Assembly: GCA_016201405.1 (NCBI GenBank) | Contig: JACQCZ010000014.1 | Coordinates: 106,631 to 170,630, forward strand | Length of the DNA: 64,000 bases | Direction: 5' to 3' | From: Candidatus Acetothermia bacterium | GTDB lineage: Bacteria > Bipolaricaulota > Bipolaricaulia > RBG-16-55-9 | Shown here: one piece after another, positions 10,677 through 55,797 of the stretch | Layout: the number at the start of each line of letters is the position of its first letter | Position numbering within the stretch: the first letter of the stretch is position 1 | Program-made: the position numbers and the translations under genes | Notes under the pieces: model-generated | Told to the model about the DNA's origin: nothing | Seen by the model: the letters and a program-made list of their open reading frames with translations, nothing else | Databases searched by the model: none

Positions 10677-10740
10677 CGTCCCCCCTCGACTCAAATTTTA
10701 GCTTATCGAATTTGACAAAAGCCTTCAAATGAAGTGAGGT

Positions 10741-19993: not shown

Positions 19994-20030
19994 CTTTCAA
20001 CCAACATCGCGGGCGCGAGCGGAGGCATTG

Positions 20031-21905: not shown

Positions 21906-21907
21906 CG

Positions 21908-24402: not shown

Positions 24403-25389
24403 ATGACCATCGAGATGCAACTGGCAAAAACAGAAGAGGTCTTCCAGAAGCTGACGCGTGACATTCAGAAAGTTATTGTCGGCCACCAGGAGACTATCCG
24501 GGGGACGCTGATCTGCCTGCTCTGTGGCGGGCATGCTCTTCTCGAAGGCGTACCCGGGCTCGGCAAGACCCTCACCGTAAAGACGCTGGGTAAATTATTG
24601 GGGCTCTCTTTCTCCAGAATTCAGTTTACGCCCGATCTCATGCCCGCAGACATTTTGGGAACCAATATCATTGTGGAAGAGGGAGGCCGGAGGGCCTTTG
24701 AGTTTTCAAAGGGCCCCATCTTTGCCCATATTGTGCTGGCGGACGAGATAAACCGCGCCACCCCCAAGACGCAATCTGCGCTCCTCGAAGCGATGCAGGA
24801 GCGCGGGGTCACCATCTCCGGCAAAACTTATGTACTGGACGAGCCATTTATCGTTCTGGCCACGCAGAACCCCATCGAGATGGAAGGCACATATCCTCTG
24901 CCTGAGGCACAAGTAGACCGCTTCTTCTTCAAGATTGTCCTCGATCAGCCGACGCAAGAAGAGCTGGACGAGATTCTCAAGCGCCACATGACATCACCGG
25001 AAGTGAAGCACATCGCCGGAAGCGCCATCTCGCGCGAGACTCTAGTCGACGCAAAGAAGCTGATGGCTCAGATCCCTATTGCGGAGCCGTTGCGCCATTA
25101 CATCGTGCGGCTGGTCAATGCCACGCATCCCAAGCGGGATGAGGCAGCTCCGCTGGTCAAAGAATACGTCGAATATGGAGCGAGCCCGCGCGCTGGCATC
25201 GCCCTTCTCTGGGGCGCAAAGGCCAATGCATTCTTAGATGGCCAATTGAACGTTCGCATCGAAGATATTCAGCGCGTCTTTGTGCCTGCATTCCGGCACC
25301 GAATCATCCGCAACTTCCGGGGCGAGGCGGAGGGCATCGCCGTCGATGAGATCTTAAAACAAGTGATCGAGAAGACTCCCGAGGTATAG
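24403..25389 (+). CDS. MoxR family AAA+ ATPase
   Basis: 328 aa; Walker A GVPGLGKT, Walker B VLADEINR, and the MoxR sensor region. Confidence 0.9.
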   Translation: MTIEMQLAKTEEVFQKLTRDIQKVIVGHQETIRGTLICLLCGGHALLEGVPGLGKTLTVKTLGKLLGLSFSRIQFTPDLMPADILGTNIIVEEGGRRAFEFSKGPIFAHIVLADEINRATPKTQSALLEAMQERGVTISGKTYVLDEPFIVLATQNPIEMEGTYPLPEAQVDRFFFKIVLDQPTQEELDEILKRHMTSPEVKHIAGSAISRETLVDAKKLMAQIPIAEPLRHYIVRLVNATHPKRDEAAPLVKEYVEYGASPRAGIALLWGAKANAFLDGQLNVRIEDIQRVFVPAFRHRIIRNFRGEAEGIAVDEILKQVIEKTPEV

Positions 25390-25395
25390 CGGCAC

Positions 25396-26268
25396 ATGCC
25401 CCTTCTGCTCGATTCAGCCTATCTCAAAAAGCTCGAAAACCTGGGTCTGGTCATTCGGGGGCGCTTTCATGGCTATATGACCGGAAAGCGGCTCACTTCC
25501 CGCTCCGGGATGAGCCTGGAATTTGCTGAATACAAAGAATATTCGCCGGGGGATGATTTTCGCTATGTAGACTGGAATCTCTATGGACGCCTTGGGAAGC
25601 TCTTTGTCAAACGCTTTAACCGCGAAGAGGACGTTCCGATCTATCTCTTTTTGGACATTAGCCATTCGATGGCCATCGGAGAAAAGCTCAATTACGCCGT
25701 TCTGCTGGCGGGCACGCTGGCCTATTTAGGACTGAAAGAATTCAATCGCGTCGGGATCTTTCCGTTTGCCAGCGATCTGGCTCTCGGCGTGCCTCCCAAA
25801 GGGAGCTACAAACAGCTCTTCCAGATCTTCCATTTCTTAGAGAAAGTCGTGCCAGCGGGAGAGACCTCCATCAATGAGTCCCTGACGCGCTTTACGCGCA
25901 TCCGCCGTGAGAGCGGGCTGGCCGTCATTATCAGCGACATGCTCAGCGAGGATGGCTTTGAAGAGGGACTGGCACAGCTCCTCTATCATGGCTATGAGGT
26001 GATCGTCCTTCATCTGTTGGCTCCCGATGATTTGAATCCAGCGTGGAATGGCGAGATTCGCCTCAAAAATATTGAAGACCAGAAGGAGATTACAGTCCAT
26101 GTGGATCGCGCTGCGCTGAACGAGTACCAGACGGCCTTGGATAATTATCGTTCAAGACTGGAAGCATTCTGTCGTGAGCGCGGCATCCGCTATGCCCTGG
26201 TCTCTACGGACAGCCCTCTTGAGAAGACAGTCTTCGAGACCTTGCGGGAAGGGGCGCTGGTTCAATGA
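25396..26268 (+). CDS. DUF58 domain protein (MoxR partner)
   Basis: 290 aa; DUF58 signature YVDWNLYGRLGKLFVKRF and LFLDISHSM; directly downstream of MoxR. Confidence 0.85.
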   Translation: MPLLLDSAYLKKLENLGLVIRGRFHGYMTGKRLTSRSGMSLEFAEYKEYSPGDDFRYVDWNLYGRLGKLFVKRFNREEDVPIYLFLDISHSMAIGEKLNYAVLLAGTLAYLGLKEFNRVGIFPFASDLALGVPPKGSYKQLFQIFHFLEKVVPAGETSINESLTRFTRIRRESGLAVIISDMLSEDGFEEGLAQLLYHGYEVIVLHLLAPDDLNPAWNGEIRLKNIEDQKEITVHVDRAALNEYQTALDNYRSRLEAFCRERGIRYALVSTDSPLEKTVFETLREGALVQ

Positions 26269-28154
26269 CCTTTCTATCGGGCATTGCGCTCTGGCTTCTA
26301 GGCCTTGGTGCGATCATCACATTTATTTATTTCTTAAAGCGCCAGGCGCGGGTGCAGCCCGTCTCGACGCTCTTTCTCTGGCAAAGGATTGAGCAGAGGC
26401 CCCAGAGCGCGCTCCGTTTTCAGTGGACCCAGCTCCTCGGGCTCATCTTGCAGTTACTGGCTCTCACAGCCATTGTGGTGGGGATTGCCCAGCCGGTGAT
26501 CTACTCTGCCAGCGGCGGTGTGGGACGAATGGCCATTCTGCTCGATGGAAGCGCCAGCATGCGAGCGCTCATGCCTTCTGAAAAGATCACACGCTTTGAG
26601 CGGGCCGTACAGCGGGCTCAAGGGTTGCTCGATGAGAATCCGGCTGCCGAGGTGACCTTGGTCGAGGCACAGACGCACAGCGCAATCCTTGTACCGCCTA
26701 CCCATGATCATTCCTTCATTCGCAAGGCTCTGAGCGACGCCAGGCCGACGTATCAGGGGAATGCTGACTCGGGCGAGCTGCTCAGCCTTCTTCAAAGTCA
26801 GAGCAGCACAGGCTATGACCAAGTTGTCCTGATCAGCGATCAAGCTGCCAAGCCGCAGCAGCAGCAATTGGGGATTGATGTTGAGTCCGTCTTGGGAGAT
26901 GAATCTTCTGAAAATATTGCCCTTACGGACTTTTCTGTGCGTGAGCAGCCCAATGGCAAGGGGTATGACTTCTATCTCCAAGCCTGGAACTCATCGAGTG
27001 ATGCAGTAAACGTTCCGCTGGATATAGAAGCCGATGGGAAATCCGTCCAGTCGGATGTGATCACCATCCCCGCGCATGGCTCTCTCTCACGAACTTTCTC
27101 ATCGTCGCTTCGCTATGCGGATGAGTTTCGAGCCAAGATCGATACCACGGCTCTTCCCGACGACTGGAGCGATGATGACGTACGCTATGCGACATCTCCA
27201 CAGCCACCCCCCTGGAAGATTTTATGGGTAGGCAAGATCAATTTTTATCTAGAGAGCTTTTTGCAGAATTCAGGAGAGGTTGACCTGACCGAGAAGGCGA
27301 CCCTGGATGAAGCGGGAGATCTCAACCGCTATGACGTGGTCCTGCTCAATCAAGTCGATCTTTCGGATGCTCAGGCTGGCGCGGGTCATTATCTGGCATT
27401 TGGCGGCTCTTTTGGAAGCTATATCCTCTCCAAAAGCATTCATGATCTGACGAGTGGCGCGGTGGATGTCCAGAAAGATGACCCACTCTTGCAAGGGATG
27501 GACCCGACCGCTTGGCGACTGCTCCACATTCCGGACGCGGCCGTCGATCCCAAGGGAGAGGTCTTATTATCTTCCGAGAGTCTTCCGTTTCTTTATATTT
27601 ATGAGAAGCCGGGTCTGCGGCTTTCGTATATCGGAGCCGATTTGGAGGCTTCCAATCTTGTATTGTCGATTGATTTTCCAATACTGATCTATCGTCTGCT
27701 CTCTTGGCTTTCTCCCCGCTCTGGGGAGAGCACAACGCTGACGGCTGGAGACGAGCTTCCGCTATCATCATTAGAAAATATAAAGAGCATTGTCGATCCG
27801 CAAGGCAAGACCTGTCAATACAATTCTTCCGCAAGCCAGTGCGGCAGCTTGGGCGAGATCGGTTTCTATCAGGCCACGCGAGCCGATGGAGAGGCCGTGA
27901 CTTTCGCCGCCAATGCGGATCCAACAGAGTCTATTTGGGAGGATGCTTCGGATGCGGCTGCAACTGCAGTGACTCCGACGAGCTCACAGCAGGCAGGGTC
28001 ACTGGGCGACACGCCGCAAGCGTTAAAAGCGGCGATCCCTGTATGGCCCTATTTGCTGGCGATTGGATTGATCTTATTACTGGCTGAGCTCTTCACATTT
28101 CACCGTCCAACGGCAATTCCATGGCTGCCCTCCCTGGGGAGGAAGAGGGCATGA
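26265..28154 (+). CDS. BatA-like membrane protein with VWA domain
   Basis: 629 aa; N-terminal BatA-type TM region, MIDAS-like DGSAS motif, C-terminal TM helix. Start overlaps upstream stop. Confidence 0.7.
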   Translation: MTFLSGIALWLLGLGAIITFIYFLKRQARVQPVSTLFLWQRIEQRPQSALRFQWTQLLGLILQLLALTAIVVGIAQPVIYSASGGVGRMAILLDGSASMRALMPSEKITRFERAVQRAQGLLDENPAAEVTLVEAQTHSAILVPPTHDHSFIRKALSDARPTYQGNADSGELLSLLQSQSSTGYDQVVLISDQAAKPQQQQLGIDVESVLGDESSENIALTDFSVREQPNGKGYDFYLQAWNSSSDAVNVPLDIEADGKSVQSDVITIPAHGSLSRTFSSSLRYADEFRAKIDTTALPDDWSDDDVRYATSPQPPPWKILWVGKINFYLESFLQNSGEVDLTEKATLDEAGDLNRYDVVLLNQVDLSDAQAGAGHYLAFGGSFGSYILSKSIHDLTSGAVDVQKDDPLLQGMDPTAWRLLHIPDAAVDPKGEVLLSSESLPFLYIYEKPGLRLSYIGADLEASNLVLSIDFPILIYRLLSWLSPRSGESTTLTAGDELPLSSLENIKSIVDPQGKTCQYNSSASQCGSLGEIGFYQATRADGEAVTFAANADPTESIWEDASDAAATAVTPTSSQQAGSLGDTPQALKAAIPVWPYLLAIGLILLLAELFTFHRPTAIPWLPSLGRKRA

Positions 28155-30721
28155 TTCGGTTCAGCCAGCTCTGGCCGCTTCTCTTACTGCTTATCCCTAT
28201 CGGACTGCTCCTCTGGCAGTGGGAGGCGCTGAAGCGCTTTACCCTCGGCGACCGCATTTCGTTTGGGGCGCGGCTCGGAGTTGTGGCGCTTGGCATCCTC
28301 GCACTCTCAGGACCGCAATTGTTGAGCTGGACGGAATCGCACTACGTCTATTTTCTGGCAGATCTTTCCAAAAGCGTGAGCCCTCAAGACCGGGGTCAGC
28401 TGCTCTCGGAGCTTCGCGCACTCGCCAAGCCGCAAGAGTACACTCAATACGGCCTGATCGTCTTTGGGGTCAAGCCGTATGTCGAAGCTCCATTCAGCCC
28501 AATGTTAAATTTGAACGAGGTCTTGACGAATGTCGATAGTGAAGGAACAGATTTGCAGGCCGCACTGGAGCTGGCCATGTCAACCTTCCCCCGTGATGGC
28601 AAGAAGACGATTGTGCTTCTTTCCGATGGCCAGCCAAGCCAGGGAGAGACGACAGAGGCGCTGGCCCGCGCCAAACGGGAAGGGGTAGAGATCTTCACTT
28701 TGCCGATGGACCCGCCAGCCTCTGAGTTTTCAATCCAGACGATCCAGGCTCCACAAGAGGTCGCAGTCCAGCTCCCCTTCTCATTCCAGAGCGTCGTCTA
28801 TGCCTCACGATCCAGCACCGGAAAGCTGCTCACATACCGCAATGAGACACTGATTGACACAAAAGATGTCGCTCTGCGTCCTGGGCTCAATTACTTTTCG
28901 TATAGCGACAAAGTGAATGACCCCGGCAGCTATGAGTACCGAGCCGAGCTTGTTGTCGCTGGCGATGCGCTCCCTCAGAACAATCATTATCGCGCATTGG
29001 TCGATGCGATCGGCGATCCGCGCATTCTTCTGGTAGAGAACAATTCTTCAGAGCAAGAATCGGTGATGGGAAAGCTGTTAAAAAACTCTGGCTATGCCTT
29101 CTCCAAAGTGAGCCTGAATGAGCTGGCGCCGACAGCCAGCTCCCTGCTCTCATACCGAGCTGTGATTATGAACGAAGTGCCGCTCAAAGATCTCACGGCA
29201 CGGCAGACCGAATTTCTAGAAAATTATGTGCGCGATCTCGGCGGAGGGCTCTTCCTCGTCCAGGGCAGGCAGTCCGTCGAAGAGTTTTATGACCGCCAGT
29301 TTGAGCAGATGCTGCCCATCACCTATGAAGGTCCGCAAGAGATCCAGCGCCCCGCGCTCGCTTTGGTGATGCTGCTCGACCGCTCCGGCAGCATGGGCGA
29401 GATCGCCGGCGGTGATACCAAGGGCAGCTATATGAAGATCGATCTCTTAAAACAGGCAGCACGAGAGGCCGTCTCCAAGCTCGATGACAACAGCCTTGTC
29501 GGCATCATCGGCTTTGACTCGACCTACGACTGGCTGGTAGACATTGGCCCCGTGAAAGGTCGGAAAGATGAGATTTTAGCTGCAGTTGATAAGCTCTATG
29601 CCAATGGCGGGACAGACATCTATCAGCCTCTCAAAGATGCCGTCGCCCAGTTGCAGAAGCTGACCGCGCGCGTCAAGCACATTCTGGTCTTCTCCGATGG
29701 AAAAGTATCCCAGCAGGGGCGCGATTTCGATCAAATCTTCCAGGAGATTGCCGGCAGCACGATCAGCGCCTCATCCATTGCCATCGGAGCACAAGCCGAT
29801 TTTGACTTCATGTGGAAGCTGGCGGATGCGGGGAGCGGCGCCAAATATCCAGTGGCCGATGCGCGGGATCTGCCACGAATCACGCTGGAAGAGATGGTGC
29901 GGCTGGAACGCGCCCGCTGGGTCAAAGGGCCATTGGGTGTCGAGGCCGGACCCTTTGCAAATCAGCTGACTGGAATTGACCCCAGCACCATCCCCAATGT
30001 CGATGGCTATGTTCTGACGTTTGAGAAGCCAACGGCGCAGACGCAGCTTCAGGTCCGTGCTGACAAAGATCATGCAGACCCTCTGGTGAGTCAGTGGCAC
30101 TATGGTCTGGGCAAGGTCTTTGTGCTCAACACCAGCTTTGAAGGCGAAGGCCTGGAGCGCTGGAAGTCCTGGAGCGGACTGGGCGAGCTGAGCTCTGAGA
30201 TTCTGAGCCAGGTCTACAGCGAGAGCACCATCAAGCCCAAAGAGCTAGCCGTCTGGACAGATTCTTCTAACTCAACGCTGAGCGTCCATGTTGAAGCGGA
30301 CCGCGACGGCAAATGGCTGGATCAATTGGTAATGAATGGGCAACTCAACACACCGGATGGCAAGTCAATTCCTCTCGACTTGGAACAGACGGGACCAGGG
30401 ACCTATCAGGCCACCGTAAAAGATCTGAGCGAAGGCGTCTATCTGCTCAATTTGGGTGAAGATTCACTCGGTCAAGTCCAAGAGGCTGTCCAGATTCCCT
30501 ATGCAGCGGAGTACAAAAAGATTGGGCTGAATGAGCCACTTTTGCAACAGATCGCAGAAGTGACTGGAGGAGAATATCTTGAGAATCCAGATCGCTTGCA
30601 AGGCCTGTTGCAGGGCCGGACACTGATCTACCGGGATATCTGGCAGGAGATTTTATTGGCAGCCCTCTTCTTCTTTCTGGCCGATCTGGCTCTGAGAAAA
30701 GTGCCTTTTCTGCACGCTTAA
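28151..30721 (+). CDS. BatB-like membrane protein with two VWA domains
   Basis: About 856 aa from ATG 28151 (ATGA overlap); N-terminal TM, two MIDAS-like motifs (DLSKS and DRSGS), C-terminal TM anchor. Confidence 0.7.
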   Translation: MIRFSQLWPLLLLLIPIGLLLWQWEALKRFTLGDRISFGARLGVVALGILALSGPQLLSWTESHYVYFLADLSKSVSPQDRGQLLSELRALAKPQEYTQYGLIVFGVKPYVEAPFSPMLNLNEVLTNVDSEGTDLQAALELAMSTFPRDGKKTIVLLSDGQPSQGETTEALARAKREGVEIFTLPMDPPASEFSIQTIQAPQEVAVQLPFSFQSVVYASRSSTGKLLTYRNETLIDTKDVALRPGLNYFSYSDKVNDPGSYEYRAELVVAGDALPQNNHYRALVDAIGDPRILLVENNSSEQESVMGKLLKNSGYAFSKVSLNELAPTASSLLSYRAVIMNEVPLKDLTARQTEFLENYVRDLGGGLFLVQGRQSVEEFYDRQFEQMLPITYEGPQEIQRPALALVMLLDRSGSMGEIAGGDTKGSYMKIDLLKQAAREAVSKLDDNSLVGIIGFDSTYDWLVDIGPVKGRKDEILAAVDKLYANGGTDIYQPLKDAVAQLQKLTARVKHILVFSDGKVSQQGRDFDQIFQEIAGSTISASSIAIGAQADFDFMWKLADAGSGAKYPVADARDLPRITLEEMVRLERARWVKGPLGVEAGPFANQLTGIDPSTIPNVDGYVLTFEKPTAQTQLQVRADKDHADPLVSQWHYGLGKVFVLNTSFEGEGLERWKSWSGLGELSSEILSQVYSESTIKPKELAVWTDSSNSTLSVHVEADRDGKWLDQLVMNGQLNTPDGKSIPLDLEQTGPGTYQATVKDLSEGVYLLNLGEDSLGQVQEAVQIPYAAEYKKIGLNEPLLQQIAEVTGGEYLENPDRLQGLLQGRTLIYRDIWQEILLAALFFFLADLALRKVPFLHA

Positions 30722-31303: not shown

Positions 31304-32047
31304 TCAAACAGGGCTGGGTGGGCTTGGCCTTTTTGCAAAGAAGCGCACGAAGAGCAAGCCTGTTATGAAGCCGCCAATGTGAGCCATATAGGCAATACCA
31401 CCCCCCTGAATTGCACCACCTCCAAGCAGAGAGCTAATCACTTGCAGCAAGAACCAGAAGCCCAAGACAATCATCGCTGGCATCTCGATCAACTGCACGA
31501 TGACAAAGAGGAAGAGAATTGTGAGAACGCGGGCAAAGGGATACAGGAGCAGGTATGCACCCAAGACCCCGGCAATCGCTCCGCTTGCCCCCACCATCGG
31601 GCTCACACTATGGGTGTTCGTCAGAATCTGCGCAATCGCTGCCACTAAGCCAGCCATGAAGTAGAAGAGTGCAAAGCGCACTTTGCCCATGGCATCTTCT
31701 ACATTGTCGCCAAAGATCCATAGAAACCACATATTACTCGCAATGTGCAGAATGTCTCCGTGCAAAAACATGGATGAAAAAAGCTTCATCCAGACTGGAA
31801 AATCTGTGACAGAAAAGAGGGGACAGTTGGACAGAATCTCACAGGGCGTCAGTCCGTATTTGTAGATAAAGTAGTCGTAGTGTGAGATCACGCCGACTTC
31901 GCCGCCAATTTGCACGCGAACTTTGGAGGGATTCTGCCCCATAACCAGCGCCTGATAGAGAAAGACAATCACGTTGATGGCAATAATGAGTACCGTGACC
32001 CAGGGAAAGGACTGGCTACGTCTATAATCCCGCAATGGGAAGAGCAA
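31304..32047 (-). CDS. rhomboid family intramembrane serine protease
   Basis: 247 aa; catalytic Ser in GASGAIAGVLGAY and His in AHIGGF; 6-7 TM helices. Confidence 0.85.
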   Translation of the reverse strand: MLFPLRDYRRSQSFPWVTVLIIAINVIVFLYQALVMGQNPSKVRVQIGGEVGVISHYDYFIYKYGLTPCEILSNCPLFSVTDFPVWMKLFSSMFLHGDILHIASNMWFLWIFGDNVEDAMGKVRFALFYFMAGLVAAIAQILTNTHSVSPMVGASGAIAGVLGAYLLLYPFARVLTILFLFVIVQLIEMPAMIVLGFWFLLQVISSLLGGGAIQGGGIAYMAHIGGFITGLLFVRFFAKRPSPPSPV

Positions 32048-38766: not shown

Positions 38767-39201
38767 TCACCTCTTAGCACACTCTTGACAGACTGATGAT
38801 CCTTTGTCAACCACACGTCCGCATTCGCGGCAATTGGACTTCAAATCTTCGTAACAGTTGGGGCAGATGGCATGCTCACGGCCAACCGGCTTTCCGCAGT
38901 GAGGGCATTTGGAGGTAAATGAAAGGTTAAACTTTGAGGCCTTCTCTGCCAAAGGCTCAGGATAGGCGCGCAGCCAGATGGCGATCTGTCTGCTGGCGCG
39001 GAACGAGAATGGAACCCAGAAAAAGGCAAAGATGACCCAACTGATCCATTCTAAGATGGGGGTCAGCTCGCGGGCAAAGAGAATTCCAACCCAGATCAGC
39101 AGCCAAAAGGGGAGCCAGCGAAGCCAGCCACCTCCAAACCACGAGATCGAGCAGATTCTCCGCTCAGATCTTCTCTCGCGTCTCCACGTGCGATAGCTCA
39201 T
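38767..39201 (-). CDS. membrane protein with C-terminal zinc-ribbon
   Basis: Tryptophan-rich TM helices followed by four CxxC pairs (CPHCGK, CPNCYE, CRECGR, CQEC). Start uncertain; the ORF extends to 39255. Confidence 0.5.
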   Translation of the reverse strand: MSYRTWRRERRSERRICSISWFGGGWLRWLPFWLLIWVGILFARELTPILEWISWVIFAFFWVPFSFRASRQIAIWLRAYPEPLAEKASKFNLSFTSKCPHCGKPVGREHAICPNCYEDLKSNCRECGRVVDKGSSVCQECAKR

Positions 39202-40066
39202 TGACTTCCAGTGACTCCTCGTATTCGACTCGCTCAATCTCGCAGCCCAGGCCAATGATCACATTTTTGCCGCGGACAATCTTGGCTTTGGTCGATTCCA
39301 AGTGAATCTCATCGCCTTCAATCGTTTCGGCTTCGAGCACACCATTGCCAATAAAGCCGCTCACGTGGATGCCAAAGTTACCCAAGCTCTCTTTGAGCTG
39401 CCCCATCATGTCGGCTATCTTCTCCAGATCAACATCAATGTTGACCCCGAAGTCATTGAACTTCCAGCGCTTTCCTCGTGCTTTCTCTTCCATGCGTCTC
39501 TTGAATTTATCTTGGTCAAAGCCGCCAAATTTCTGCAAGACTTCGATCTTTTCGCCGCCAATCTCACGGGCATGAGAATCCCCACCTAGCCGAATTGAGA
39601 TCTCGTCGGCGCTGAGCAGACCGCCAATCTCAAAAGAGCCTTCCGAGTTGAATTTGTCGGCCTCGACGTCACCGCCGACTGCGCATGTGCCGCTGATCTT
39701 GATATAGCTGGTAGTTAGCTTACCGCCGATCTTCTGCGTGCCAGAGCACTTAAAGACATCTGCTGAGACATCGCCATTGACCACCGCTGAGCCTGTGGTG
39801 CGCAGGTCTTCGGCTTTCACGTTGCCATCGACGCGGCATGAGCCTGCTGAGTGAAACTCTTCCGCTTCGGCATCCCCTTCGATCGCGCATGACCCTGCAA
39901 TGCTGATCGACTCGGCTTTGACATCACCGGCAATTGTCCCTGAGCCGGCCACTTTGATGCTCTGGTAGGTGCCGCCGCTGATCCGGCCCGAGCCGGCAAT
40001 CGTGACGCGCTCTGCGCCCTCTTCTTCTTTGGCCTCTGATCTCATGACCATAATCGCTCCTTTCAC
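39164..40066 (-). CDS. bactofilin-like (polymer-forming, beta-helical repeat) protein with two repeat domains
   Basis: 300 aa; repeated G-x-G beta-strand pattern (GSGRISGG, VAGSGTIAGDV, IAGSCAIEGD, ISGTCAVGGDV) typical of bactofilin/YhbE-YhbF-type proteins. Confidence 0.6.
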   Translation of the reverse strand: MKGAIMVMRSEAKEEEGAERVTIAGSGRISGGTYQSIKVAGSGTIAGDVKAESISIAGSCAIEGDAEAEEFHSAGSCRVDGNVKAEDLRTTGSAVVNGDVSADVFKCSGTQKIGGKLTTSYIKISGTCAVGGDVEADKFNSEGSFEIGGLLSADEISIRLGGDSHAREIGGEKIEVLQKFGGFDQDKFKRRMEEKARGKRWKFNDFGVNIDVDLEKIADMMGQLKESLGNFGIHVSGFIGNGVLEAETIEGDEIHLESTKAKIVRGKNVIIGLGCEIERVEYEESLEVNELSHVETREKI

Positions 40067-41074: not shown

Positions 41075-42175
41075 ATGAGCATATTTAGCCGTTTTCGAGA
41101 CATCATCAAATCCAATCTCCACGCTGCAGCCGACAAGATTGAGAACCCGGAATATATTCTGGATTCCAAATATGACGACTTGCTCCATGAGCGGAAGCGT
41201 ATCGAGCAAGGCGTGCGGGATTCCATCGCCCACCGCATCATGATCCAGAATGAGATGGAAGATCTGCGCAAAAAGATCGGCAAGGTCTTTGAGCAAGCCA
41301 AGCTTCACCGCCTGAAAGCCCTTTCATTGGAAGAGAAGGCCAAAGAGGACCCCAAGTCACAGGTTCAGCTGGAGAAGCACAATAGCGAAGCCCTAAAGCG
41401 CCTGCAAGACAAGATGCGCATGGAAGAGAAGCTGGGCGAGTTTCAAGAGAAGTTCCAGAAGGCCGAGCTGCGCATCAATGCCATGAAAGAGAAGCAGATC
41501 GCTCTCCAAGCCAAGCTGGAAGATCTGAGATTGCGCAAAGAGGAGATCAAGAGCGAGCTGCGCATGGCTGAGGCGGAGCGCAAGATTTCGTCCGCCCTTT
41601 CCGGTCTGGATGGCGACTTTGGCGATGTTGACCTCACCATTCAGCGCATCGAAGACAAAGTGAAGCGGACCAAAGCCCTGGCTGAAGCCACAACCGAGAT
41701 GGCCCTGGAGATGGGGCGCGCACGGGGTGATGTGATCGAGATTGAAGGGGTCACAGAGCTTCGCGCCGAATCGGCATTGAAGAAACTGGATATTGAGCTG
41801 CTTGGCGAAGGACAGATCGAGAGACTCGCTCCAGGTGAGATCGAATTCTTCACTATTGAGGTCTCGGGCGGCGGAACGTGGGCCTTCCCCGCCAGCGATA
41901 AGAAGGAGATCTTGGCATCGCTCAACCAGATTGACAAAGAGATGACCCGACTCAAAGAGAAGAATGAGCTCGACCATGACGGCTTTGAAGAGAATTACAA
42001 AAAGATCTTTCAGATCATCCGCAAGCGCGGCAAACTTGTAGGCCGGGACATCAAGATGAGCGCCGTGGCACGAGACAAAGCCACAACTGAGCCGGCAATT
42101 CGCATCCCACCTGAAGATTTGGAGTACAGCGAGGCGATCAAGCTGCTCGAAGGTGAAGGGCTGATCGCGGATTAA
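41075..42175 (+). CDS. pspA: PspA/IM30 family protein with roughly 130-aa C-terminal extension
   Basis: 366 aa; N-terminus MSIFSRFRDIIKSNLHAAADKIENPE and coiled-coil PspA core to about residue 230; unrecognised C-terminal domain. Confidence 0.8.
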   Translation: MSIFSRFRDIIKSNLHAAADKIENPEYILDSKYDDLLHERKRIEQGVRDSIAHRIMIQNEMEDLRKKIGKVFEQAKLHRLKALSLEEKAKEDPKSQVQLEKHNSEALKRLQDKMRMEEKLGEFQEKFQKAELRINAMKEKQIALQAKLEDLRLRKEEIKSELRMAEAERKISSALSGLDGDFGDVDLTIQRIEDKVKRTKALAEATTEMALEMGRARGDVIEIEGVTELRAESALKKLDIELLGEGQIERLAPGEIEFFTIEVSGGGTWAFPASDKKEILASLNQIDKEMTRLKEKNELDHDGFEENYKKIFQIIRKRGKLVGRDIKMSAVARDKATTEPAIRIPPEDLEYSEAIKLLEGEGLIAD

Positions 42176-50758: not shown

Positions 50759-51550
50759 TTAACGCGGCGCAGCCTTGCGCATCATTTTGGCAAAGCGGTT
50801 GGGGAAGAATCTCTTGATGTAAATGAGCTTTATATCCCGTCCCGCGATGAAGATCTCATTCTCGTCTTGCTCGATTCCTTGCAGAATCTTCTCTGCACAG
50901 ACCGCAGGGGGCTGGCCATTCGCCACAGCCTGGTCCATTTTGTTAAAAACTGCCCCGTCGCCTTTAAGCGCATTGAGCGAGATATTCGTGTGAATGTAGC
51001 CAGGACAGACAATCATGACTTTGATCCCATCTTGCCACGTCTCAGCGCGGAGCGATTCGAAGAAGCCGTGCAGAGCGTGCTTTGAGGCCGAATAAGCCGA
51101 GCGCAGCGGCGTCCCGAACTTTCCGGCCAAGCTGCTGATGGCCACAATGTGACCCGATTTCTGTTTCAACATGATGGGCAGAACGGCCTTTGTCAGTGCC
51201 ACTGTGCCAAAGTAATTGACGGCCATGATCTTCTTGTCGACTTCAAGTCTCGTATCTTTGGTGAGTGCACGCTGGCTGATTCCGCCATTGTTGACGAGAA
51301 CATCAATTCTTCCGAATTTTGCGAGCGCCGTCTCAGTTTTCTTGGTAAGAGAGTCGTGATCAGCCAGATCAAGGGGCAAAACAAGTATATCCTCTGGTTT
51401 AGCTCCCAAACTGGCTTGAGCCCGGTTGAGCTCGTCCTCGCGGCGCGCTGACAGAATCACTTTCGCGCCCTTCTGATAAAACAAACGAGCCAGAGCCTCC
51501 CCAATTCCTGAAGATGCACCCGTGATCCATACGACTTTTTCTTGAAAGCT
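50759..51550 (-). CDS. SDR family oxidoreductase
   Basis: Rossmann motif TGASSGIGEA, NNGG and catalytic YSASK. Start chosen at MSFQEK; the ORF extends to 51592. Confidence 0.85.
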   Translation of the reverse strand, partial: SFQEKVVWITGASSGIGEALARLFYQKGAKVILSARREDELNRAQASLGAKPEDILVLPLDLADHDSLTKKTETALAKFGRIDVLVNNGGISQRALTKDTRLEVDKKIMAVNYFGTVALTKAVLPIMLKQKSGHIVAISSLAGKFGTPLRSAYSASKHALHGFFESLRAETWQDGIKVMIVCPGYIHTNISLNALKGDGAVFNKMDQAVANGQPPAVCAEKILQGIEQDENEIFIAGRDIKLIYIKRFFPNRFAKMMRKAAPR

Positions 51551-52245
51551 CATGCTTGCACCCCACGCTTGAGATAGTTGCACCAGCCGCACTCCGGATC
51601 AGCCTCTGGCGCTTCGACTCTCTCCAGTACATCCAGAACATTGTCTAGCAGCCTCAAGAAGACTTGTGGGTCTTGCCTCACTTCAATCCAGGAGAGAGAA
51701 CCAGCCATCGTCGCGCTGCCGCCTCCATTATGCACAAAGAGCTCTGGCTCAAAGATGAGCAGCCCCAATCGGGTGACTGGGCTTAGCGAAAGCTTTCCAA
51801 GGGCTGCATTTTGCAAGGAGTAAGCATATGCATTGAGCTGCTTAAAATAGACATCGGCGTGGGCTGCCGATGGCCTTGAGGTCTTGAAGTCAATCACCCC
51901 ATAGGAGCCATCATCAAAGGCCACAACCGCATCGAGCTTGCCTCGAATATAGCAGCTTGTTGAATGATTTTTAAGCGAAATGGGCTTCGATTCGATCCAC
52001 TTCTCTCCAAATTTGACGATGCCACTGGGAAGCTGGCTGCTGATGCGCTCTGTGCGCTCATTGATGAGACAATCTTTCATCTTGGAGTCAATCACCGTAA
52101 AGATCTTGGGCATGGCCATTCGCGGGCGGTCAAAATGATCAACAAGCTTGAGGTAAAAGCAGCGTTTGCACTCTTCCCAAAGAAAGACCAGATCACTCGG
52201 CGTCAGTTTCCAGCAGGCCTCTTCTGGAAAGAGGGACTTGATCAT
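51550..52245 (-). CDS. PD-(D/E)XK nuclease superfamily protein, Cas4/RecB-like with Cys clusters
   Basis: 231 aa; N-terminal CKRC, nuclease motifs VIDFKTS and YFKQLNAYAYSL (QxxxY), C-terminal CGWC. Confidence 0.6.
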   Translation of the reverse strand: MIKSLFPEEACWKLTPSDLVFLWEECKRCFYLKLVDHFDRPRMAMPKIFTVIDSKMKDCLINERTERISSQLPSGIVKFGEKWIESKPISLKNHSTSCYIRGKLDAVVAFDDGSYGVIDFKTSRPSAAHADVYFKQLNAYAYSLQNAALGKLSLSPVTRLGLLIFEPELFVHNGGGSATMAGSLSWIEVRQDPQVFLRLLDNVLDVLERVEAPEADPECGWCNYLKRGVQA

Positions 52246-52440
52246 TGAGATGTTCGCTCGCCTCCTCAGTTTTCACGATTGTCAAGCCGCGTAATGTAAT
52301 CTTTAGAACCGCCTGCCCTATAGCCTACCAGTAAGATGAGCGAGGAGCCAAATAGTAGATGAGCGATCTACTGATTTATTATGCATGGGTAGCGACCCAT
52401 GCTATAGCGTTACCGAATGAGGTAAGCAATAGGAGGGCAC

Positions 52441-54954
52441 ATGTTTAAGGGAACCTTAGCAAAGCCATACAAACTATTATTTTGTCTGCTCGCCTTGGCA
52501 GGGCTGTTGGCATTCTTTAGCAATGCATCTGTCTTAGCCCAGCGGCAGCCCGCCACTTCGAACCCGGCGCCGACGACGCTCCCTAAAGGGGACATCGTCT
52601 TTGTGATGGATGAATCTGGCAGCATCTTCAATGATGCGATGGCCGTAGACGCCAATTTGAACCAGATTGTCCAGCTCCTTGAGGGCGTCCTTGATTATCA
52701 AGTCGGCATCGTCGGCTTTGGCTCATATGTGGGGCACATGGGCACTCAATATGAAGGCCAGCCCTACATCAACCTAAAGCTGACGTCTGACATGAAGGCT
52801 TTTTCAAAAGCCCTCAAGACGCTAGTGACAGATGGCAATTTTGAGTATGGATTCGATGCCGTCAAGCTGGCCACTCAGGACGAGCTGGGCTTCCGCCCAG
52901 GCGCGGGCGTCTGCGTCGTGCTCATCACCGATGAAGATGCCGATCTCTCCAGTGAGCAGCCAGTCAGCCGCGAGGATGCTATTGCGGCCTTACAGAAGAT
53001 CCACGCCGATTTTCTCGGAATTGTGGACCCGTCGTATGGAACGACCATGCAAGATTACGGGCCATTGGCTGGAAGTCTGGCGCAGGCGACCGGTGGAAAA
53101 ATCTTTGATATCGCGAAGTTCCGCAAAGATGCAGGCCCGGTCCTGCGTGAGCTGATCTCATCGTGCGTCAGCACGGTTCAGAATAATAATCAAAACAATA
53201 ACCAAAACAACGGAAACACGGGCACCCCAAGCACACAGCCTCAACAACCCCAGCCTAGCTATGCAACCAGCGAAGAGCTCGATCAGCTCAAGATCGCCTT
53301 CACGGCGCTCTCCAACCAGAACACGGACTTTTTGGCTCGCCTGAGCCAGATTGTGAGCCGCATCGAGGCACTGGAAGCGAAGGGCAATGGGCTGCCAGCC
53401 GATCTTGAAGCGCGGCTCACGACCTATGAGCGCAACTTCCAGCGCATTGACATCACTTTCCAGAACTTTACTGCCAACTTCAATCAGTACAATTTGCGCC
53501 TTAATGACGCCGAGCAGAATATTGCCTCGCTACGGACTACAATTGCCGCTCTGCAAGAATCCAACCAGAATATGGCGATCCGAATGCAGAGCTTGGAGGA
53601 CCGCATCAAAGCCCTGGAAGGCTCTGACATTGGCGACCGCGTCAAGGCACTCGAAGCCGTCTTTGTCGAATTTGACAGCTTCAAGACCGACTTTGGCGCT
53701 CTGCTCAACTGGCGTGACGACGCCAAGCAGAGACTGGATGCGCTGGAGAAGGCATTTGCCGATGCGAATAACCAATTCAATGCTATCCACGCAACCCTGA
53801 CAGACTTACAAAACTCAGACAGCGGCATAAACTCGCGCGTCGACGACCTGACGGGACGTCTGAAGAGCTTGGAGGATCAGACCGCACAGCTCTCTTCGGG
53901 TCTTGGAGCACGGATCGATGCATTAGAGAAGCAGCTCGCCGGATTTGCTGGATATGAGGCCCGCTTCCAGGAGATCGAATCGAAACTCAATGGCATTGAT
54001 CTGAGTGTATATGATGCCAAATTCCAAACATTTGCTGGCGAGATTGATGCACTGCAAAAAGCCGTCACAGAGAACTCTCAAGATATCGCTTCGTTCAAAG
54101 ACCGGGCTTCCGCTTGGGATTTGGATCTTTCTAACTTGAAAGGAGCGGTTGGCTCCCTGGTCGATAAAGTGAGCGCCCTGGGCGGCCTGGTCCAGCAGGT
54201 CGCAGACTTGCAATCCGCCGTTCAGGGACTTCAGACAAAGCTCCAGGATACGCAAGACTCATTCTCAGCCCGATTTCAGACGAACGAAGCAAATTTGGAT
54301 GCCCTTAAGAAAGAGATCGATGGCGTCAATAGCGATCTTCAAGATTTGATCAAGCGCCTCAGCGACAAACCGTTCGCGCTTCAATCCGACTTGGATTCGC
54401 TCGCCTCAAGCTTGGGCAGCCGCATCCAGTCTCTCTTGCACCGCATCCAAAACTTGGAGGCGGCAGGACAGGGACCTGATCCCGAGACGAAGAGCCAGCT
54501 TGAGAACCTGGCCAACTTGATCTCGCAGCTCCAGGTGAGCCTGGCACAGCAGGCATCGAAACAGAATGCCGATTACGAAGAAGTGAAGAATCTGATCGCG
54601 GGTCATGAGGAATGGCTCCAAAAGATCGAGGCTTGGAAGTCGATGGATGACGAGCGGGTGGCTGGCCTCGATCAACGACTGACGACTGTGGAGGGTAGTC
54701 TCAATGACCTCTCTGCACAGCTGAAAGATAGCCAGAACAAGCTGACTGCGAATCAGAAGACGATGGGAGATCTCCAGCACTCTCTCACCGACTTGAAGAC
54801 CAAGCTGGATGACCTTGCCAATCGAATGGATGGACAGAGCAATGCGCTCGATCCCGCCAAGCTGCGCTCGGCTCAGCGTCTGGCAGAGATTGCCTTCCTG
54901 ACCGCAGTGGCAGCCATCGGAATCTCGCTGCTCTTCTTTCTATCCAAATCGTAA
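52441..54954 (+). CDS. secreted VWA-domain protein with long coiled-coil region and C-terminal TM anchor
   Basis: 837 aa; signal peptide, VWA with MIDAS DESGS, N/Q-rich linker, about 550 aa of heptad-like repeats (RIEALEA, RIKALEG, RVKALEA, RIDALEK), C-terminal TM helix. Confidence 0.7.
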   Translation: MFKGTLAKPYKLLFCLLALAGLLAFFSNASVLAQRQPATSNPAPTTLPKGDIVFVMDESGSIFNDAMAVDANLNQIVQLLEGVLDYQVGIVGFGSYVGHMGTQYEGQPYINLKLTSDMKAFSKALKTLVTDGNFEYGFDAVKLATQDELGFRPGAGVCVVLITDEDADLSSEQPVSREDAIAALQKIHADFLGIVDPSYGTTMQDYGPLAGSLAQATGGKIFDIAKFRKDAGPVLRELISSCVSTVQNNNQNNNQNNGNTGTPSTQPQQPQPSYATSEELDQLKIAFTALSNQNTDFLARLSQIVSRIEALEAKGNGLPADLEARLTTYERNFQRIDITFQNFTANFNQYNLRLNDAEQNIASLRTTIAALQESNQNMAIRMQSLEDRIKALEGSDIGDRVKALEAVFVEFDSFKTDFGALLNWRDDAKQRLDALEKAFADANNQFNAIHATLTDLQNSDSGINSRVDDLTGRLKSLEDQTAQLSSGLGARIDALEKQLAGFAGYEARFQEIESKLNGIDLSVYDAKFQTFAGEIDALQKAVTENSQDIASFKDRASAWDLDLSNLKGAVGSLVDKVSALGGLVQQVADLQSAVQGLQTKLQDTQDSFSARFQTNEANLDALKKEIDGVNSDLQDLIKRLSDKPFALQSDLDSLASSLGSRIQSLLHRIQNLEAAGQGPDPETKSQLENLANLISQLQVSLAQQASKQNADYEEVKNLIAGHEEWLQKIEAWKSMDDERVAGLDQRLTTVEGSLNDLSAQLKDSQNKLTANQKTMGDLQHSLTDLKTKLDDLANRMDGQSNALDPAKLRSAQRLAEIAFLTAVAAIGISLLFFLSKS

Positions 54955-54990: not shown

Positions 54991-55797
54991 TCACATATAG
55001 CCCAGCGCGCGGAGTCTCTCCATCAATTCTTCTTTATCCTGCTCACGGCCTGCGCGCTCATTGACGCCCAGCTCTTGCTCCCAGGCCGGGCGGTCGTCGA
55101 GCGGCTCGGCACCAATCGAATCAAGAGAGCGAAAGCCCTTTGCATAGAGCGGATGGATGGGGAGCTTCTCCTGCATCATCACAGTCCAAATATCCCGCTC
55201 AGTCAATGGCAGAATTGGGTGGACGCGGAAGTGATCGGGAGCCGTTCGTTTTGAAAAGAAAGTCTCCGTGGCGCGGGCAGGATGCTCATCCCAGCGGATT
55301 CCTACAAATGCATAATCAAAGCCATGCTCCCGGAACGCCTGATTCATAGCGACTGTTTTTAATAGATGATTCCCCACATCGGAATCTAGGCTGAAAGGGA
55401 ATGTGGCATTGTGATAGCTCAATCGATCTGTCACTTCATGCTGGTTCTCAGCACTTAGACTTGAGACTGAGATTGGCTCACCCATTCGCCTAGCTTCTTT
55501 CAGCACATCGGCGTTGCGGGCAATCACAAGCTTGAAGTTGTATCTCTTCTGCATTTCTCCAATGAACTTCCACGTCTCGGGAAAGTGCAGGCCGTGATCC
55601 AAGATCAACGCCGGGATCTTTTCAAGCGAGCCAACGGTCTGGTGAATCATCCATAAGAGAATAGTCGAATCTTTGCCACCGGTATAGAGCAGCACGGGAT
55701 GTCTGGCTTTTTGCAGTGTTTCTCGCACAATCTGTTGCCCGTGATCTGTTCTTTCTTTCAAAGTTCTAAACAAATGCTGATGTGAGTCGGTCGTCAT
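54991..55797 (-). CDS. PAPS reductase / sulfate adenylyltransferase subunit 2 (CysD)-like PP-loop protein
   Basis: 268 aa; PP-loop LYTGGKDS and CysD-like blocks including C-terminal LRALGYM. Confidence 0.6.
   Translation of the reverse strand: MTTDSHQHLFRTLKERTDHGQQIVRETLQKARHPVLLYTGGKDSTILLWMIHQTVGSLEKIPALILDHGLHFPETWKFIGEMQKRYNFKLVIARNADVLKEARRMGEPISVSSLSAENQHEVTDRLSYHNATFPFSLDSDVGNHLLKTVAMNQAFREHGFDYAFVGIRWDEHPARATETFFSKRTAPDHFRVHPILPLTERDIWTVMMQEKLPIHPLYAKGFRSLDSIGAEPLDDRPAWEQELGVNERAGREQDKEELMERLRALGYM

Follow-up and report, generated by a model that had tools for sequence, protein, structure and literature searches.

Omp-alpha, SlaB and tetrabrachion are envelope proteins that share one plan, consisting of a head, a coiled-coil stalk and a hydrophobic C-terminus. 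Omp-alpha (OmpA1) of Thermotoga maritima, the rod-like spacer between cell body and toga, is exported and has an N-terminal binding head, a long parallel coiled coil of 316 aa (about 45-50 nm), and ~20 hydrophobic residues at its extreme C-terminus; its homologues are predicted to be trimeric. Its head is an SLH domain, which recognizes a pyruvylated wall polymer. The archaeal SlaB of Sulfolobus acidocaldarius (PDB 8QOX) has a signal peptide, three N-terminal globular domains of beta-sandwich fold, a trimeric coiled coil of only 132 aa, and a transmembrane (TM) helix at residues 448-470 of 475, 5 residues from the C-terminus. The archaeal tetrabrachion of Staphylothermus marinus is a tetrameric, membrane-anchored coiled-coil stalk whose lattice-forming distal region, part of the same polypeptide, lies ~70 nm out. 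Trimeric autotransporter adhesins (YadA, NadA, EibD) also combine a head, a trimeric coiled-coil stalk and a membrane anchor, and a MIDAS head on a stalk is likewise carried by integrins and ANTXR, both of them type I membrane proteins, although their stalks are Ig/EGF legs rather than coiled coil. Matrilins contain VWA domains together with a C-terminal oligomerising coiled coil.

Bipolaricaulota (Acetothermia) is a deep-branching, recently cultured diderm phylum with a Thermotoga-like toga as outer membrane; how this membrane is built and attached is little understood. Omp-alpha comes from a sister phylum with the same toga-type envelope, and Bipolaricaulota have an Omp-alpha/Omp-beta/CsaB tether system of their own. 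The first cultured member of the phylum shows unexplained filamentous or 'zipper-like' densities by cryo-EM, an S-layer lies outside the toga in a cultured member, and the published analysis of the Ran1 genome reported no surface adhesins.

Within a 64-kb window (the whole stretch of DNA that was analysed) from an uncultured member of Acetothermia/Bipolaricaulota, we investigated a gene whose product follows the same plan:

52431..52436, + strand: Shine-Dalgarno sequence AGGAGG, 4 nt before the ATG, read directly in the sequence
52441..54954, + strand: target open reading frame, 837 aa, start codon ATG
54952-54954, + strand: stop codon of this frame, after K-S

The first-pass annotation had called the product giant, which is an overstatement for 837 aa, and had seen no characterised equivalent, which is too strong given the three proteins above. 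None of the three has a VWA head, as the target does. Compared with Omp-alpha, the target has a MIDAS VWA head (for protein ligands) in place of the SLH domain and a rod of ~530 aa (~78 nm) rather than 316 aa. No SLH domain was present among the best 25 of 89 Pfam matches, the region being filled by the VWA fold. An Omp-beta beta-barrel gene adjoins Omp-alpha-type loci, with csaB nearby in Bipolaricaulota, whereas neither lies beside the target gene. No sequence homology to Omp-alpha was detected, and the resemblance, including that of the C-terminus, is one of plan only. Similarity to the SlaB stalk is weak (E 0.018 with the single sequence, 1e-9 with the family profile) and probably reflects heptads and composition rather than homology. 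The NCBIfam SlaB model (NF040788) gave 34.2 bits against a cut-off of 700, confined to aa 320-394 of the rod. Tetrabrachion comes near the length inferred for the target. Trimeric autotransporter adhesins differ in the order of their parts, since the target head is N-terminal behind a Sec signal, and in their anchor, a C-terminal outer-membrane beta-barrel translocator where the target has a single alpha-helix and no barrel. We regard the protein as a variant, uncharacterised and restricted to its lineage, of known spacers or stalks of the envelope rather than as a new kind of system.

Export signal, VWA head and hinge

The N-terminal part of the protein contains the following features:

52441..52539, + strand: predicted signal peptide, aa 1-33 (MFKGTLAKPYKLLFCLLALAGLLAFFSNASVLA, cut before QRQ), from a hydrophobicity scan and the pattern in homologues
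52585..53205, + strand: VWA head, aa 49-255, with conserved MIDAS loop, T102, E135, D164 (in T-D-E-D-A-D) and Cys pair C158/C242
52609..52623, + strand: MIDAS loop D57-E-S59-G-S61, from conservation and alignment to the integrin alpha1 I domain
53185-53210, + strand: 12-nt tandem repeat AATAACCAAAAC, 2.2 copies, which encodes linker and overlaps the end of the head
53206..53268, + strand: low-complexity hinge, aa 256-276, N/Q-rich and then P/Q-rich, from AF2 disorder and linker comparison

Scanning for hydrophobicity revealed only two hydrophobic segments, at about aa 5-34 and at aa 813-837. The first bears out the signal peptide claimed earlier: a basic n-region and a hydrophobic core precede a predicted signal peptidase I site after VLA, with Q following, and n-region, core and A-x-A before Q recur in nearly all complete homologues. 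Judged by this pattern, the protein is most likely Sec-exported. A lipoprotein reading was rejected; Phe at -1 of Cys15 leaves no lipobox, and Cys15 is not conserved.

The N-terminal VWA domain with a DESGS MIDAS motif, also proposed in the first-pass annotation, was confirmed by a Pfam match above cut-off (PF00092, 28.7 bits versus 23.8, aa 51-177), by a confident head model with a Rossmann-like alpha/beta VWA fold, and by conservation of the loop. Across 12 members, D57, E58 and S59 never vary and G60 hardly does; S61 is invariant in a 6-member alignment, while one member has T in its place and another has G. Aligned to the integrin alpha1 I domain, the loop pairs with DGSNS, and D57, S59, S61 and D164, all conserved, fall on MIDAS positions of that domain. 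By alignment, the fourth MIDAS ligand appears to be the invariant E135 and not Thr. The two head cysteines (C158/C242) are invariant among members, which also speaks for export. From established VWA biochemistry, such MIDAS heads would be expected to bind metal and ligand. A BatA/BatB-type VWA protein was considered and rejected: the target is without BatA_N, its gene is monocistronic, and a MoxR-DUF58-BatA-VWA operon lies ~22 kb away, at 24403-30721 of the window.

The head model matches extracellular ligand-binding VWA domains. Its closest solved folds are integrin betaI/alphaI, ANTXR1/2 and matrilins, which at 15-20% identity are analogues and not relatives, and its structural neighbours include the VWA domains of pilus tips and RTX adhesins (Mfa5, SpaC, PitA, LapA). 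A word-index search with the head alone returned only P0008, but an exhaustive HMMER search revealed ~100 relatives. The nearest of these all belong to proteins that are exported and carry PEP-CTERM, LPXTG or PEF-CTERM-like anchors. VWA surface proteins of this kind, both small and giant (for example P0008, L010, L012 and L017), share with the target the VWA subtype D[IL]VF[VL]xDESGSM ... GxxExG ... ITDEDAD at 33-46% identity, and like it have a signal peptide and a C-terminal membrane-proximal anchor. They are, however, without a coiled-coil rod, and each is anchored by a tripartite sorting signal that includes a basic tail, a type of anchor missing from the target family. The comparison shows a modular swap, with the same VWA head on sortase- or exosortase-type anchors in other phyla and on a probably trimeric stalk with a bare helix here.

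The kinship of the head and its structural neighbours speak for the role suggested in the first-pass annotation, that of an outward adhesin fibril. In such a fibril the toga, or the membrane lying outermost, would hold the helix (or the cell would be effectively monoderm at the site of display), and the heads would bind surfaces, minerals, other cells or polymers, much as in M-protein or trimeric-autotransporter fibrils. Also in its favour, the paralogue P0134 is located among secreted-protein genes (DUF4384/PKD, a VWA-containing S8 peptidase and a beta-propeller), and the hydrophobic C-terminus of Omp-alpha has been proposed in the literature to insert in the toga. Nevertheless, there is no known route by which an alpha-helical C-terminal anchor would reach the outer membrane with its ectodomain outward, and no gene for a beta-barrel or secretion system, nor any sorting motif, was found near the target gene. 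The conserved rod length suits a fixed-distance spacer better, as adhesin stalks usually vary; and the Ran1 analysis found no surface adhesins, although it may simply have missed this protein. We regard an adhesin fibril as unlikely, but as a reading to be taken seriously.

Behind the head, the AF2 model is disordered at aa 252-301 (pLDDT below 50). The N/Q-rich linker noted in the first-pass annotation is present in the target but is not conserved in the family, where other members are Pro/Glu-rich; the linker sequence varies, and a Pro/Glu- or N/Q-rich linker is always there.

The coiled-coil rod and the terminal helix

The remainder of the protein is a rod and a C-terminal helix:

53269..54852, + strand: coiled-coil rod, aa 277-804, from heptad score, AF2 secondary structure and motif count
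aa 307, 381, 388, 400, 431, 473, 491, 508, 668 and 746, + strand: starts of R-h-x-x-h-E motifs, from a motif scan
53725..53886, + strand: best match to Pfam DUF7310 ('coiled-coil region of unknown function'), at aa 429-482 with 59.8 bits (cut-off 40)
54877..54945, + strand: C-terminal hydrophobic helix, aa 813-835 (RLAEIAFLTAVAAIGISLLFFLS), Kyte-Doolittle maximum 2.41, followed by K-S and the stop

The long coiled coil had been put forward with the proviso that a low coiled-coil signal would speak against it. We found a very strong signal. A heptad-register dynamic-programming score of 132 compares with 25 +/- 6 for shuffles (~17 SD above), and every 56-aa window has its best local period at 3.45-3.65. 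There are only 5 register shifts across 561 residues, giving six uninterrupted heptad segments (277-324, 325-395, 396-520, 521-648, 649-698 and 699-end), and heptad runs without a register shift reach 125-139 residues. All 16 members score 92-127, versus -11 to 21 for shuffles. In the AF2 secondary structure the rod is all-helical with short breaks at Gly/Pro sites; the full-length monomer model, with a mean pLDDT of 52.7 and about 35-65 in the rod, was used for secondary structure only. We infer the extension of the rod, which is not seen in this low-confidence model. Its ~530 residues would span ~75-80 nm (~78 nm fully extended at 0.148 nm per residue).

The recurring R-I/V-x-ALE motif, previously described as heptad-like, is real in its recurrence, but it is more specifically the R-h-x-x-h-E motif, a published determinant of parallel three-stranded coils for which 'R-LDALE' is explicitly named. 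The target has 10 copies of R-h-x-x-h-E where 0.09 are expected, and 8 of R[ILVM]xxLE where 0.04 are expected (none of 2000 shuffles exceeded 1). Homologues have 4-11 copies of R-h-x-x-h-E each (two counts), with 0.1-0.4 expected in the six members that were tested by shuffling. Of 9 strict motifs, 7 place the Arg at heptad position g, and beta-branched residues are about evenly divided between a and d (I+V 17 at a, 13 at d). Because the recurring motif is the published parallel-trimer determinant, the fibre is probably a homotrimer. In PDB searches the best single-sequence matches were trimeric coils (reovirus sigma1, SlaB 8qox, P22 gp26 and an autotransporter adhesin stalk), with weak matches to the autotransporter adhesin structures 2wpr, 2yo3 and 2xzr at the level of the stalk only. 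In the family-profile search the dimeric rods of myosin and SMC came first, a sign of the similarity common to coiled coils in general.

DUF7310 holds two of the trimer motifs and also appears in the precomputed Pfam annotation of each of the six close homologues; we found no mention of it in the literature. Other coiled-coil families above cut-off were Baculo_PEP_C (43.2 versus 38 bits), Fib_alpha (40.7 versus 29.9), TACC_C (36.8 versus 29.9) and NCBIfam LA_3659 (40.2 versus 36). Such matches are mainly a matter of heptad composition.

The five register breaks at Gly/Pro-containing sites leave room for a different architecture, a compact bundle folded back on itself in the manner of spectrin or apolipoprotein. 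With its helices antiparallel, such a protein would bind or sense in the periplasm, its head kept near the membrane. Three consecutive stretches of 119, 125 and 128 aa could in principle form a three-helix bundle, and the trimer motif is not fully specific. However, segment lengths and break positions vary among homologues while total length is conserved, which is unexpected if specific segments were paired. Uninterrupted heptad runs of up to 139 residues, and the strong enrichment of the parallel-trimer motif in all members, also argue against folding back, which we consider improbable.

The same variation informs the reading of an extended rod. Clustered at 50% identity, the family amounts to only about a dozen groups in a set of 1.84 billion representatives, and four of five named members are from Acetothermia/Bipolaricaulota, with one contig labelled Salinibacter. 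In 15 of 16 members the distance from the head Cys to the TM helix, that is, from head to anchor, is 514-586 aa, even though the most divergent members have 17-19% identity to the target protein and unrelated break positions. Since the head-to-anchor length is kept while the rod sequence is not, the rod is most likely a spacer or tether.

Long coiled coils are also found in cytoplasmic proteins, and the first-pass annotation had raised a match to an SMC or chemoreceptor family as the outcome that would contradict it. Models of SMC, Rad50, JetC and LmuB match the protein weakly through their arms, and the JGI names of the homologues P0006 and P0014 point in this direction; 'chromosome segregation ATPase' and 'SbcCD ATPase subunit' are misleading names that homologues owe to their coiled coil. 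The matches lie in the rod only and far below cut-offs (SMC 89 versus 729 bits, Rad50 65 versus 1000); the protein is without a Walker A motif, begins with a signal peptide and VWA domain, and has no cytoplasmic domain after the helix. An SMC/Rad50/MukB-like, chemoreceptor-like or SMC-type defence protein (JetC, LmuB) therefore has a negligible chance of being correct. PADLOC matches to SMC-type defence were at most 46 bits and in the arms only. For a chemoreceptor, the protein ends 2-3 residues past its C-terminal helix and so has no cytoplasmic domain, and MCPsignal was absent among the best 25 Pfam matches. Phage tail-fibre or tape-measure identity was rejected as well, PHROG matches being weak coiled-coil ones (at most 55 bits) to unrelated families.

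The C-terminal membrane helix claimed earlier was found in all members. It is conserved more strongly than the rod, being near-identical between members that share just 45-53% overall identity, and in a local six-frame motif scan it occurred only in family genes. Every member ends 0-5 residues past it. No basic cluster and no LPXTG, PEP or PGF motif was found at the C-terminus of any of 16 members. A sortase, exosortase or archaeosortase substrate was rejected on these grounds, there being no signature motif before the helix, no Arg/Lys cluster and a tail of 0-5 residues. The basic residues next to the helix lie on its exported side, and hardly any tail is left for the cytoplasm, a layout that is atypical of a stop-transfer anchor and makes any choice of membrane tentative. 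By default, a Sec-exported protein with a C-terminal helix would reside in the cytoplasmic membrane and face the periplasm.

Proposed role in the envelope

The reading that we prefer, with a probability of roughly 0.5, is that of a trimeric, membrane-anchored stalk that presents three MIDAS heads and serves as an envelope spacer or tether; an extended rod projecting a VWA head, as first described, is also the best reading of our analysis. After cleavage of the signal peptide, three chains would zip in parallel and in register into the ~530-residue rod, for which the heptads are observed and the trimer is suggested by R-h-x-x-h-E enrichment. The three C-terminal helices would sit together in the membrane as the anchor, and the three VWA heads would be carried on flexible low-complexity hinges at the distal end. 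There, each MIDAS metal site could hold on to an acidic residue of a protein partner, as established VWA biochemistry would predict for the observed fold and motif. The rod would in this way link the anchoring membrane to a partner ~70-80 nm away, the likeliest site being the enlarged periplasm between cell body and toga, with the anchor by default in the cytoplasmic membrane. In function, the protein would correspond to Thermotoga Omp-alpha or to archaeal SlaB and tetrabrachion, but with a MIDAS head. It is restricted to its lineage and under purifying selection, and its fixed-length rod of ~75 nm, its highly conserved membrane helix and its three putative metal-dependent heads mark it as a candidate structural element of the envelope, or as a candidate for the main adhesin.

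Two observations touch on a periplasmic location. A rod of ~78 nm exceeds an ordinary periplasm, which counts against a periplasmic tether. Also, with Omp-alpha/Omp-beta/CsaB already in Bipolaricaulota, a tether role here would be additional to that system.

A more specific form of the spacer reading, which we advance as a long shot, is a second, MIDAS-based trans-envelope connector found largely in Bipolaricaulota. Anchored in the cytoplasmic membrane, the trimer would act as a ruler of ~75-80 nm, with heads that latch reversibly and in a metal-dependent manner onto a protein of the toga or outer membrane. If this were so, the protein would fix or adjust how far cell body and toga lie apart and how they are attached, could match some of the unexplained filamentous or 'zipper-like' cryo-EM densities, and would represent a tethering principle unlike every known outer-membrane tether (Lpp, Pal, OmpA, OmpM/Omp-alpha).

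The genomic context bears on the question of a partner. We deduced that the target gene is monocistronic because the genes on both sides run on the opposite strand; its neighbours encode a PD-(D/E)XK nuclease, a PAPS reductase, an ATP-grasp protein and an Opp transporter. Comparing the neighbourhoods of family members, we found no partner gene conserved family-wide. One subfamily invariably has, as the next gene downstream, one that encodes a DUF4397 protein bearing a C-terminal TM helix of its own. This gene would fit a SlaB-like pillar, in which the trimer holds a sheet-forming second protein at a fixed distance through MIDAS contacts to make a lattice or canopy. SlaB, with the same plan and a weak sequence match in the stalk, would also fit, as would tetrabrachion, whose stalk holds a lattice ~70 nm above the membrane, and the S-layer of a cultured member of the phylum. 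Yet that S-layer, outside the toga, would be out of reach from the cytoplasmic membrane, the DUF4397 gene is missing beside the target gene, in the 64-kb window and in L002, and the SlaB model scores only 34 bits against its cut-off of 700. We think a lattice pillar has little likelihood, and favour the spacer or tether reading.

No second copy of the family is present in the 64-kb window, the paralogue P0134, apparently from the same assembly, falling outside it. The distant members P0006, P0015 and P0134 have unrelated gene contexts. Synteny of the target locus is restricted to the close relative P0004, and the genes involved are housekeeping genes.

The gene and its predicted exported head

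The open reading frame on the plus strand at 52441..54954 was placed exactly by the first-pass annotation. It starts with ATG and encodes an 837-aa protein identical to the NCBI record 'VWA domain-containing protein [Candidatus Acetothermia bacterium]'. The G+C of the gene is that of its surroundings, and it is monocistronic, since its neighbours on either side lie on the opposite strand. The features in and around it are:

51550-52245, strand opposite to the target gene: flanking gene, PD-(D/E)XK nuclease
52431-52436, plus strand: Shine-Dalgarno AGGAGG, consensus match, 4 nt before the ATG
53185-53210: 12-nt tandem repeat AATAACCAAAAC x2.2, encoding the N/Q run of the hinge
54991-55797, strand opposite to the target gene: flanking gene, PAPS reductase

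A Kyte-Doolittle scan detected only two hydrophobic segments, at aa 5-34 and aa 813-837. The first has the Sec layout of a Lys-rich n-region, a hydrophobic core and VLA|Q, so the N-terminus is of the exported type and the signal peptide read earlier is confirmed. Nearly all complete homologues share this layout with an A-x-A|Q site, as does homologue P0006 once its miscalled start, which omits 48 N-terminal residues including the signal peptide, is extended upstream. From established knowledge, the protein would be exported by Sec.

The predicted N-terminal VWA domain with a MIDAS motif (DESGS) was recovered at aa 49-255, above the Pfam VWA cut-off. A head-only AlphaFold2 model was confident (pLDDT 89.1, pTM 0.87), and Foldseek matched its fold to ANTXR1/2 and integrin I/betaI domains with E about 1e-10. 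D57-E-S59-G-S61 and D164 correspond in alignment to the MIDAS residues of the alpha1 I domain of integrin, and homologues show no or almost no variation at these positions. The invariant E135 appears to lie at or beside the usual MIDAS Thr position, where integrin betaI domains have Glu. By analogy with established MIDAS chemistry, the site would capture an acidic ligand residue in a metal-dependent manner. An outward-facing adhesin is one live rival reading of the protein. C158 and C242, invariant in 12/12 aligned members, could form a disulfide, as would suit an exported domain. The protein belongs to the VWA superfamily and formally also to Pfam DUF7310, on which we found no literature.

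Outside the family, the VWA subtype of the head recurs at 33-46% identity in several protein settings. It is found in small signal peptide, VWA and PEP-CTERM proteins (Marinobacter, Phycisphaeraceae, Opitutales and database homologue P0008) and in very large proteins of Actinomycetes and Chloroflexota; among the latter proteins, one from Microbacterium and two from Iamiaceae have an LPXTG-type signal at the C-terminus. One further carrier is archaeal:

L010 2280-3098: 272-aa protein of an Archaeoglobus sp. MAG, head subtype at 41% identity

Its C-terminus, ...PEFPPIAIAALGLLGAIVLLRRR, is a PEF-CTERM-like archaeosortase signal. Because these relatives carry PEP-CTERM, PEF-CTERM-like or LPXTG-type signals, the head is a module that serves for display beyond the cytoplasmic membrane, and the archaeal protein indicates that this module crosses the boundary between bacteria and archaea with lineage-specific anchors. 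In Bipolaricaulota, a trimeric stalk and a bare helix would have taken the place of the sorting signal.

Hinge, rod and anchor

The head is followed by a hinge of about 20 residues. Its N/Q-rich character, noticed at first reading, holds for the window protein, in which the tandem repeat encodes it; in relatives the hinge is Pro/Glu-rich, and it is the feature rather than the sequence that is conserved. P0002, a 92%-identical homologue, differs from the window protein by indels at the hinge repeat, which suggests that hinge length may vary by slippage.

The rod is a true heptad coil, as the first-pass annotation had proposed: every 56-residue window across aa 271-830 peaks at a hydrophobic periodicity of 3.45-3.65, and a register-aware dynamic programme scored the rod at 132 vs 25 +/- 6 for shuffles. 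There are 5 register shifts in 561 residues, with uninterrupted runs of 125, 128 and 139 residues. AlphaFold divided the rod into about ten long helices, briefly interrupted at Gly/Pro sites, with the low confidence expected for a coiled coil modelled as a monomer.

The recurring R-I/V-x-ALE motif that had been noticed in the rod is real, and corresponds to the published trimerisation motif Arg(g)-h(a)-x-x-h(d)-Glu(e). This motif specifies parallel three-stranded coiled coils, without being fully specific for trimers; the 'R-LDALE' named in the source paper is present at aa 431. The window rod contains 10 copies vs 0.09 expected. Every homologue has 4-11 (two counts combined), the six shuffle-tested members have 5-11 vs 0.1-0.4 expected, and two motif positions are kept in 5-6/6 aligned sequences. 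Arg occupies heptad position g in 7/9 strict motifs, and beta-branched residues are evenly distributed between a and d. Searched as a single sequence, the protein best matched trimeric coils in the PDB (reovirus sigma1, SlaB, P22 gp26 and a TAA stalk); family-profile matches also include dimeric myosin and SMC rods. Given the motif counts, the Arg at g, the a/d spread and the trimeric PDB matches, we consider a parallel homotrimer likely, with a probability of roughly 0.6.

The proposed terminal TM helix is indeed present as a hydrophobic segment, RLAEIAFLTAVAAIGISLLFFLS, followed by only two residues. Its equivalent ends 0-5 residues before the C-terminus in 16/16 family members, and a basic cluster or LPXTG/PEP/PGF motif at the C-terminus was found in 0/16. 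Because the helix is near-identical between proteins of only 45-53% overall identity, its contacts with other helices or with a partner may be specific. On its exported side the helix is flanked by basic residues, an uncommon arrangement for a stop-transfer anchor, so that more than one target membrane is possible.

The family and a probable spacer of conserved length

Word-index searching across 5.8 billion clusters yielded six relatives. When 1.84 billion representatives were searched exhaustively with HMMER, about a dozen full-architecture proteins emerged (P0003, P0004, P0009-P0015 and, more divergent, P0134 and P0140), with about 100 head-only matches ranking below them. Five members are named: two Ca. 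Acetothermia proteins, two from Ca. Bipolaricaulota MAGs (L003, L004) and one from a contig labelled Salinibacter sp. Members discussed individually are:

L045 4291-6801, 11.7-kb contig JBDGQN010000304.1: P0015, full-architecture member, MAG labelled Salinibacter sp.
L044 7682-10168: P0134, probable paralogue of the window protein

Either P0015 takes the family beyond Bipolaricaulota or its contig is misbinned; its neighbours are a Type ISP restriction enzyme on one side and sulfite reductase on the other. P0134, at 22% identity, is probably a paralogue of the window protein in the same genome and lies outside the 64-kb window. Near its gene are a DUF4384/PKD protein, a 900-aa DUF11-TIG-VWA-subtilase, a PQQ-type beta-propeller and a 258-aa secreted protein of unknown family. 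In the JGI annotation, P0006 and P0014 bear the names 'chromosome segregation ATPase' and 'DNA repair exonuclease SbcCD ATPase subunit'; both are wrong, having arisen solely from the coiled coil. For the window protein, a role in the cytoplasm like that of SMC or MCP proteins is excluded.

The spacing between the invariant Cys and the TM helix is conserved, at 514-586 residues in 15/16 members (outlier, 439). The most divergent members share only 17-19% identity with the window protein, and register-break positions differ wholly from member to member. Since length is conserved while sequence is free, the rod bears what would be the signature of a spacer. The same pattern argues against a compact fold-back bundle, a live rival that would need specific pairing of segments. 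Extended as a spacer, at the coiled-coil rise of about 0.148 nm per residue, aa 277-804 would span about 78 nm.

Synteny with the window was seen only for the close relative P0004, through housekeeping genes; the neighbourhoods of P0006, P0015 and P0134 are unrelated to it. In a distant subfamily (L001, L003 and L004), the gene directly after the family gene in every locus, on the same strand, encodes a DUF4397 protein:

L001 12391-13209: DUF4397 protein gene
L003 3009-3878: DUF4397 protein gene
L004 about 10472-11410: DUF4397 protein gene

Besides a signal peptide, the product (about 270-290 aa) carries a conserved TM helix of its own at the C-terminus, PNPPVPxxIWVGLxLWALLLARFVxxHL. The remaining neighbours differ from locus to locus, and the pair looks like a conserved two-gene cassette. 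Because the DUF4397 gene was found neither in the 64-kb window nor in relative locus L002, its product is a possible partner for the distant subfamily only.

Known stalk proteins and the host envelope

Analysis of the Ran1 genome suggested a simple Thermotoga-like diderm envelope, and in the first cultured Bipolaricaulota strain the outer membrane forms toga-like extensions that bear an S-layer on the outer face. [quoted passage not shown] The window protein shares this plan, but has a VWA head and a longer rod, and lacks the SLH domain and adjacent barrel that define Omp-alpha/OmpM. In SlaB, a signal peptide and head domains of the beta-sandwich type precede a coil that is trimeric and, at residues 448-470 of 475, a TM helix; the tetrabrachion stalk measures about 70 nm. 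Both are archaeal and share the principle. The window protein lacks the defining features of SlaB; a SlaB-like pillar for a lattice is a live rival. The barrel of trimeric autotransporters is absent, as are the defining features of sortase-type substrates, BatA/B and SMC.

The view that the protein has no characterised equivalent holds in part. We found no characterised protein of prokaryotes in which a MIDAS VWA head, a ~530-aa trimer-type rod and a bare C-terminal helix occur together, but the plan itself is known from Omp-alpha, SlaB and tetrabrachion, and by analogy the protein would work like this class of membrane-anchored coiled-coil stalks. We propose that a parallel homotrimer, with a head and an anchor helix from each of its three chains, would act as a fixed-length tether or spacer. 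Its most likely place is the enlarged periplasm that separates the cell body from the toga, and its anchor would sit in the cytoplasmic membrane. The protein is a concrete candidate envelope component of a phylum whose toga architecture is just starting to be accessible to experiment.

Elsewhere in the window, a 'Bat'/aerotolerance-type operon (24403-30721, plus strand; MoxR (AAA_3), DUF58, BatA_N/VWA and an 866-aa double-VWA protein) is preceded by three large ORFs without a Pfam match (20028-24380, plus strand; 625, 288 and 579 aa). It lies ~22 kb from the target gene, and we found no evidence linking the two. The window also contains genes for a rhomboid protease (31304-32047, minus strand), a PspA/IM30 protein with a PspA-associated domain (41075-42175, plus strand) and a bactofilin (39164-40066, minus strand), a protein that discussion in the literature links to the polar appendages of Bipolaricaulota.
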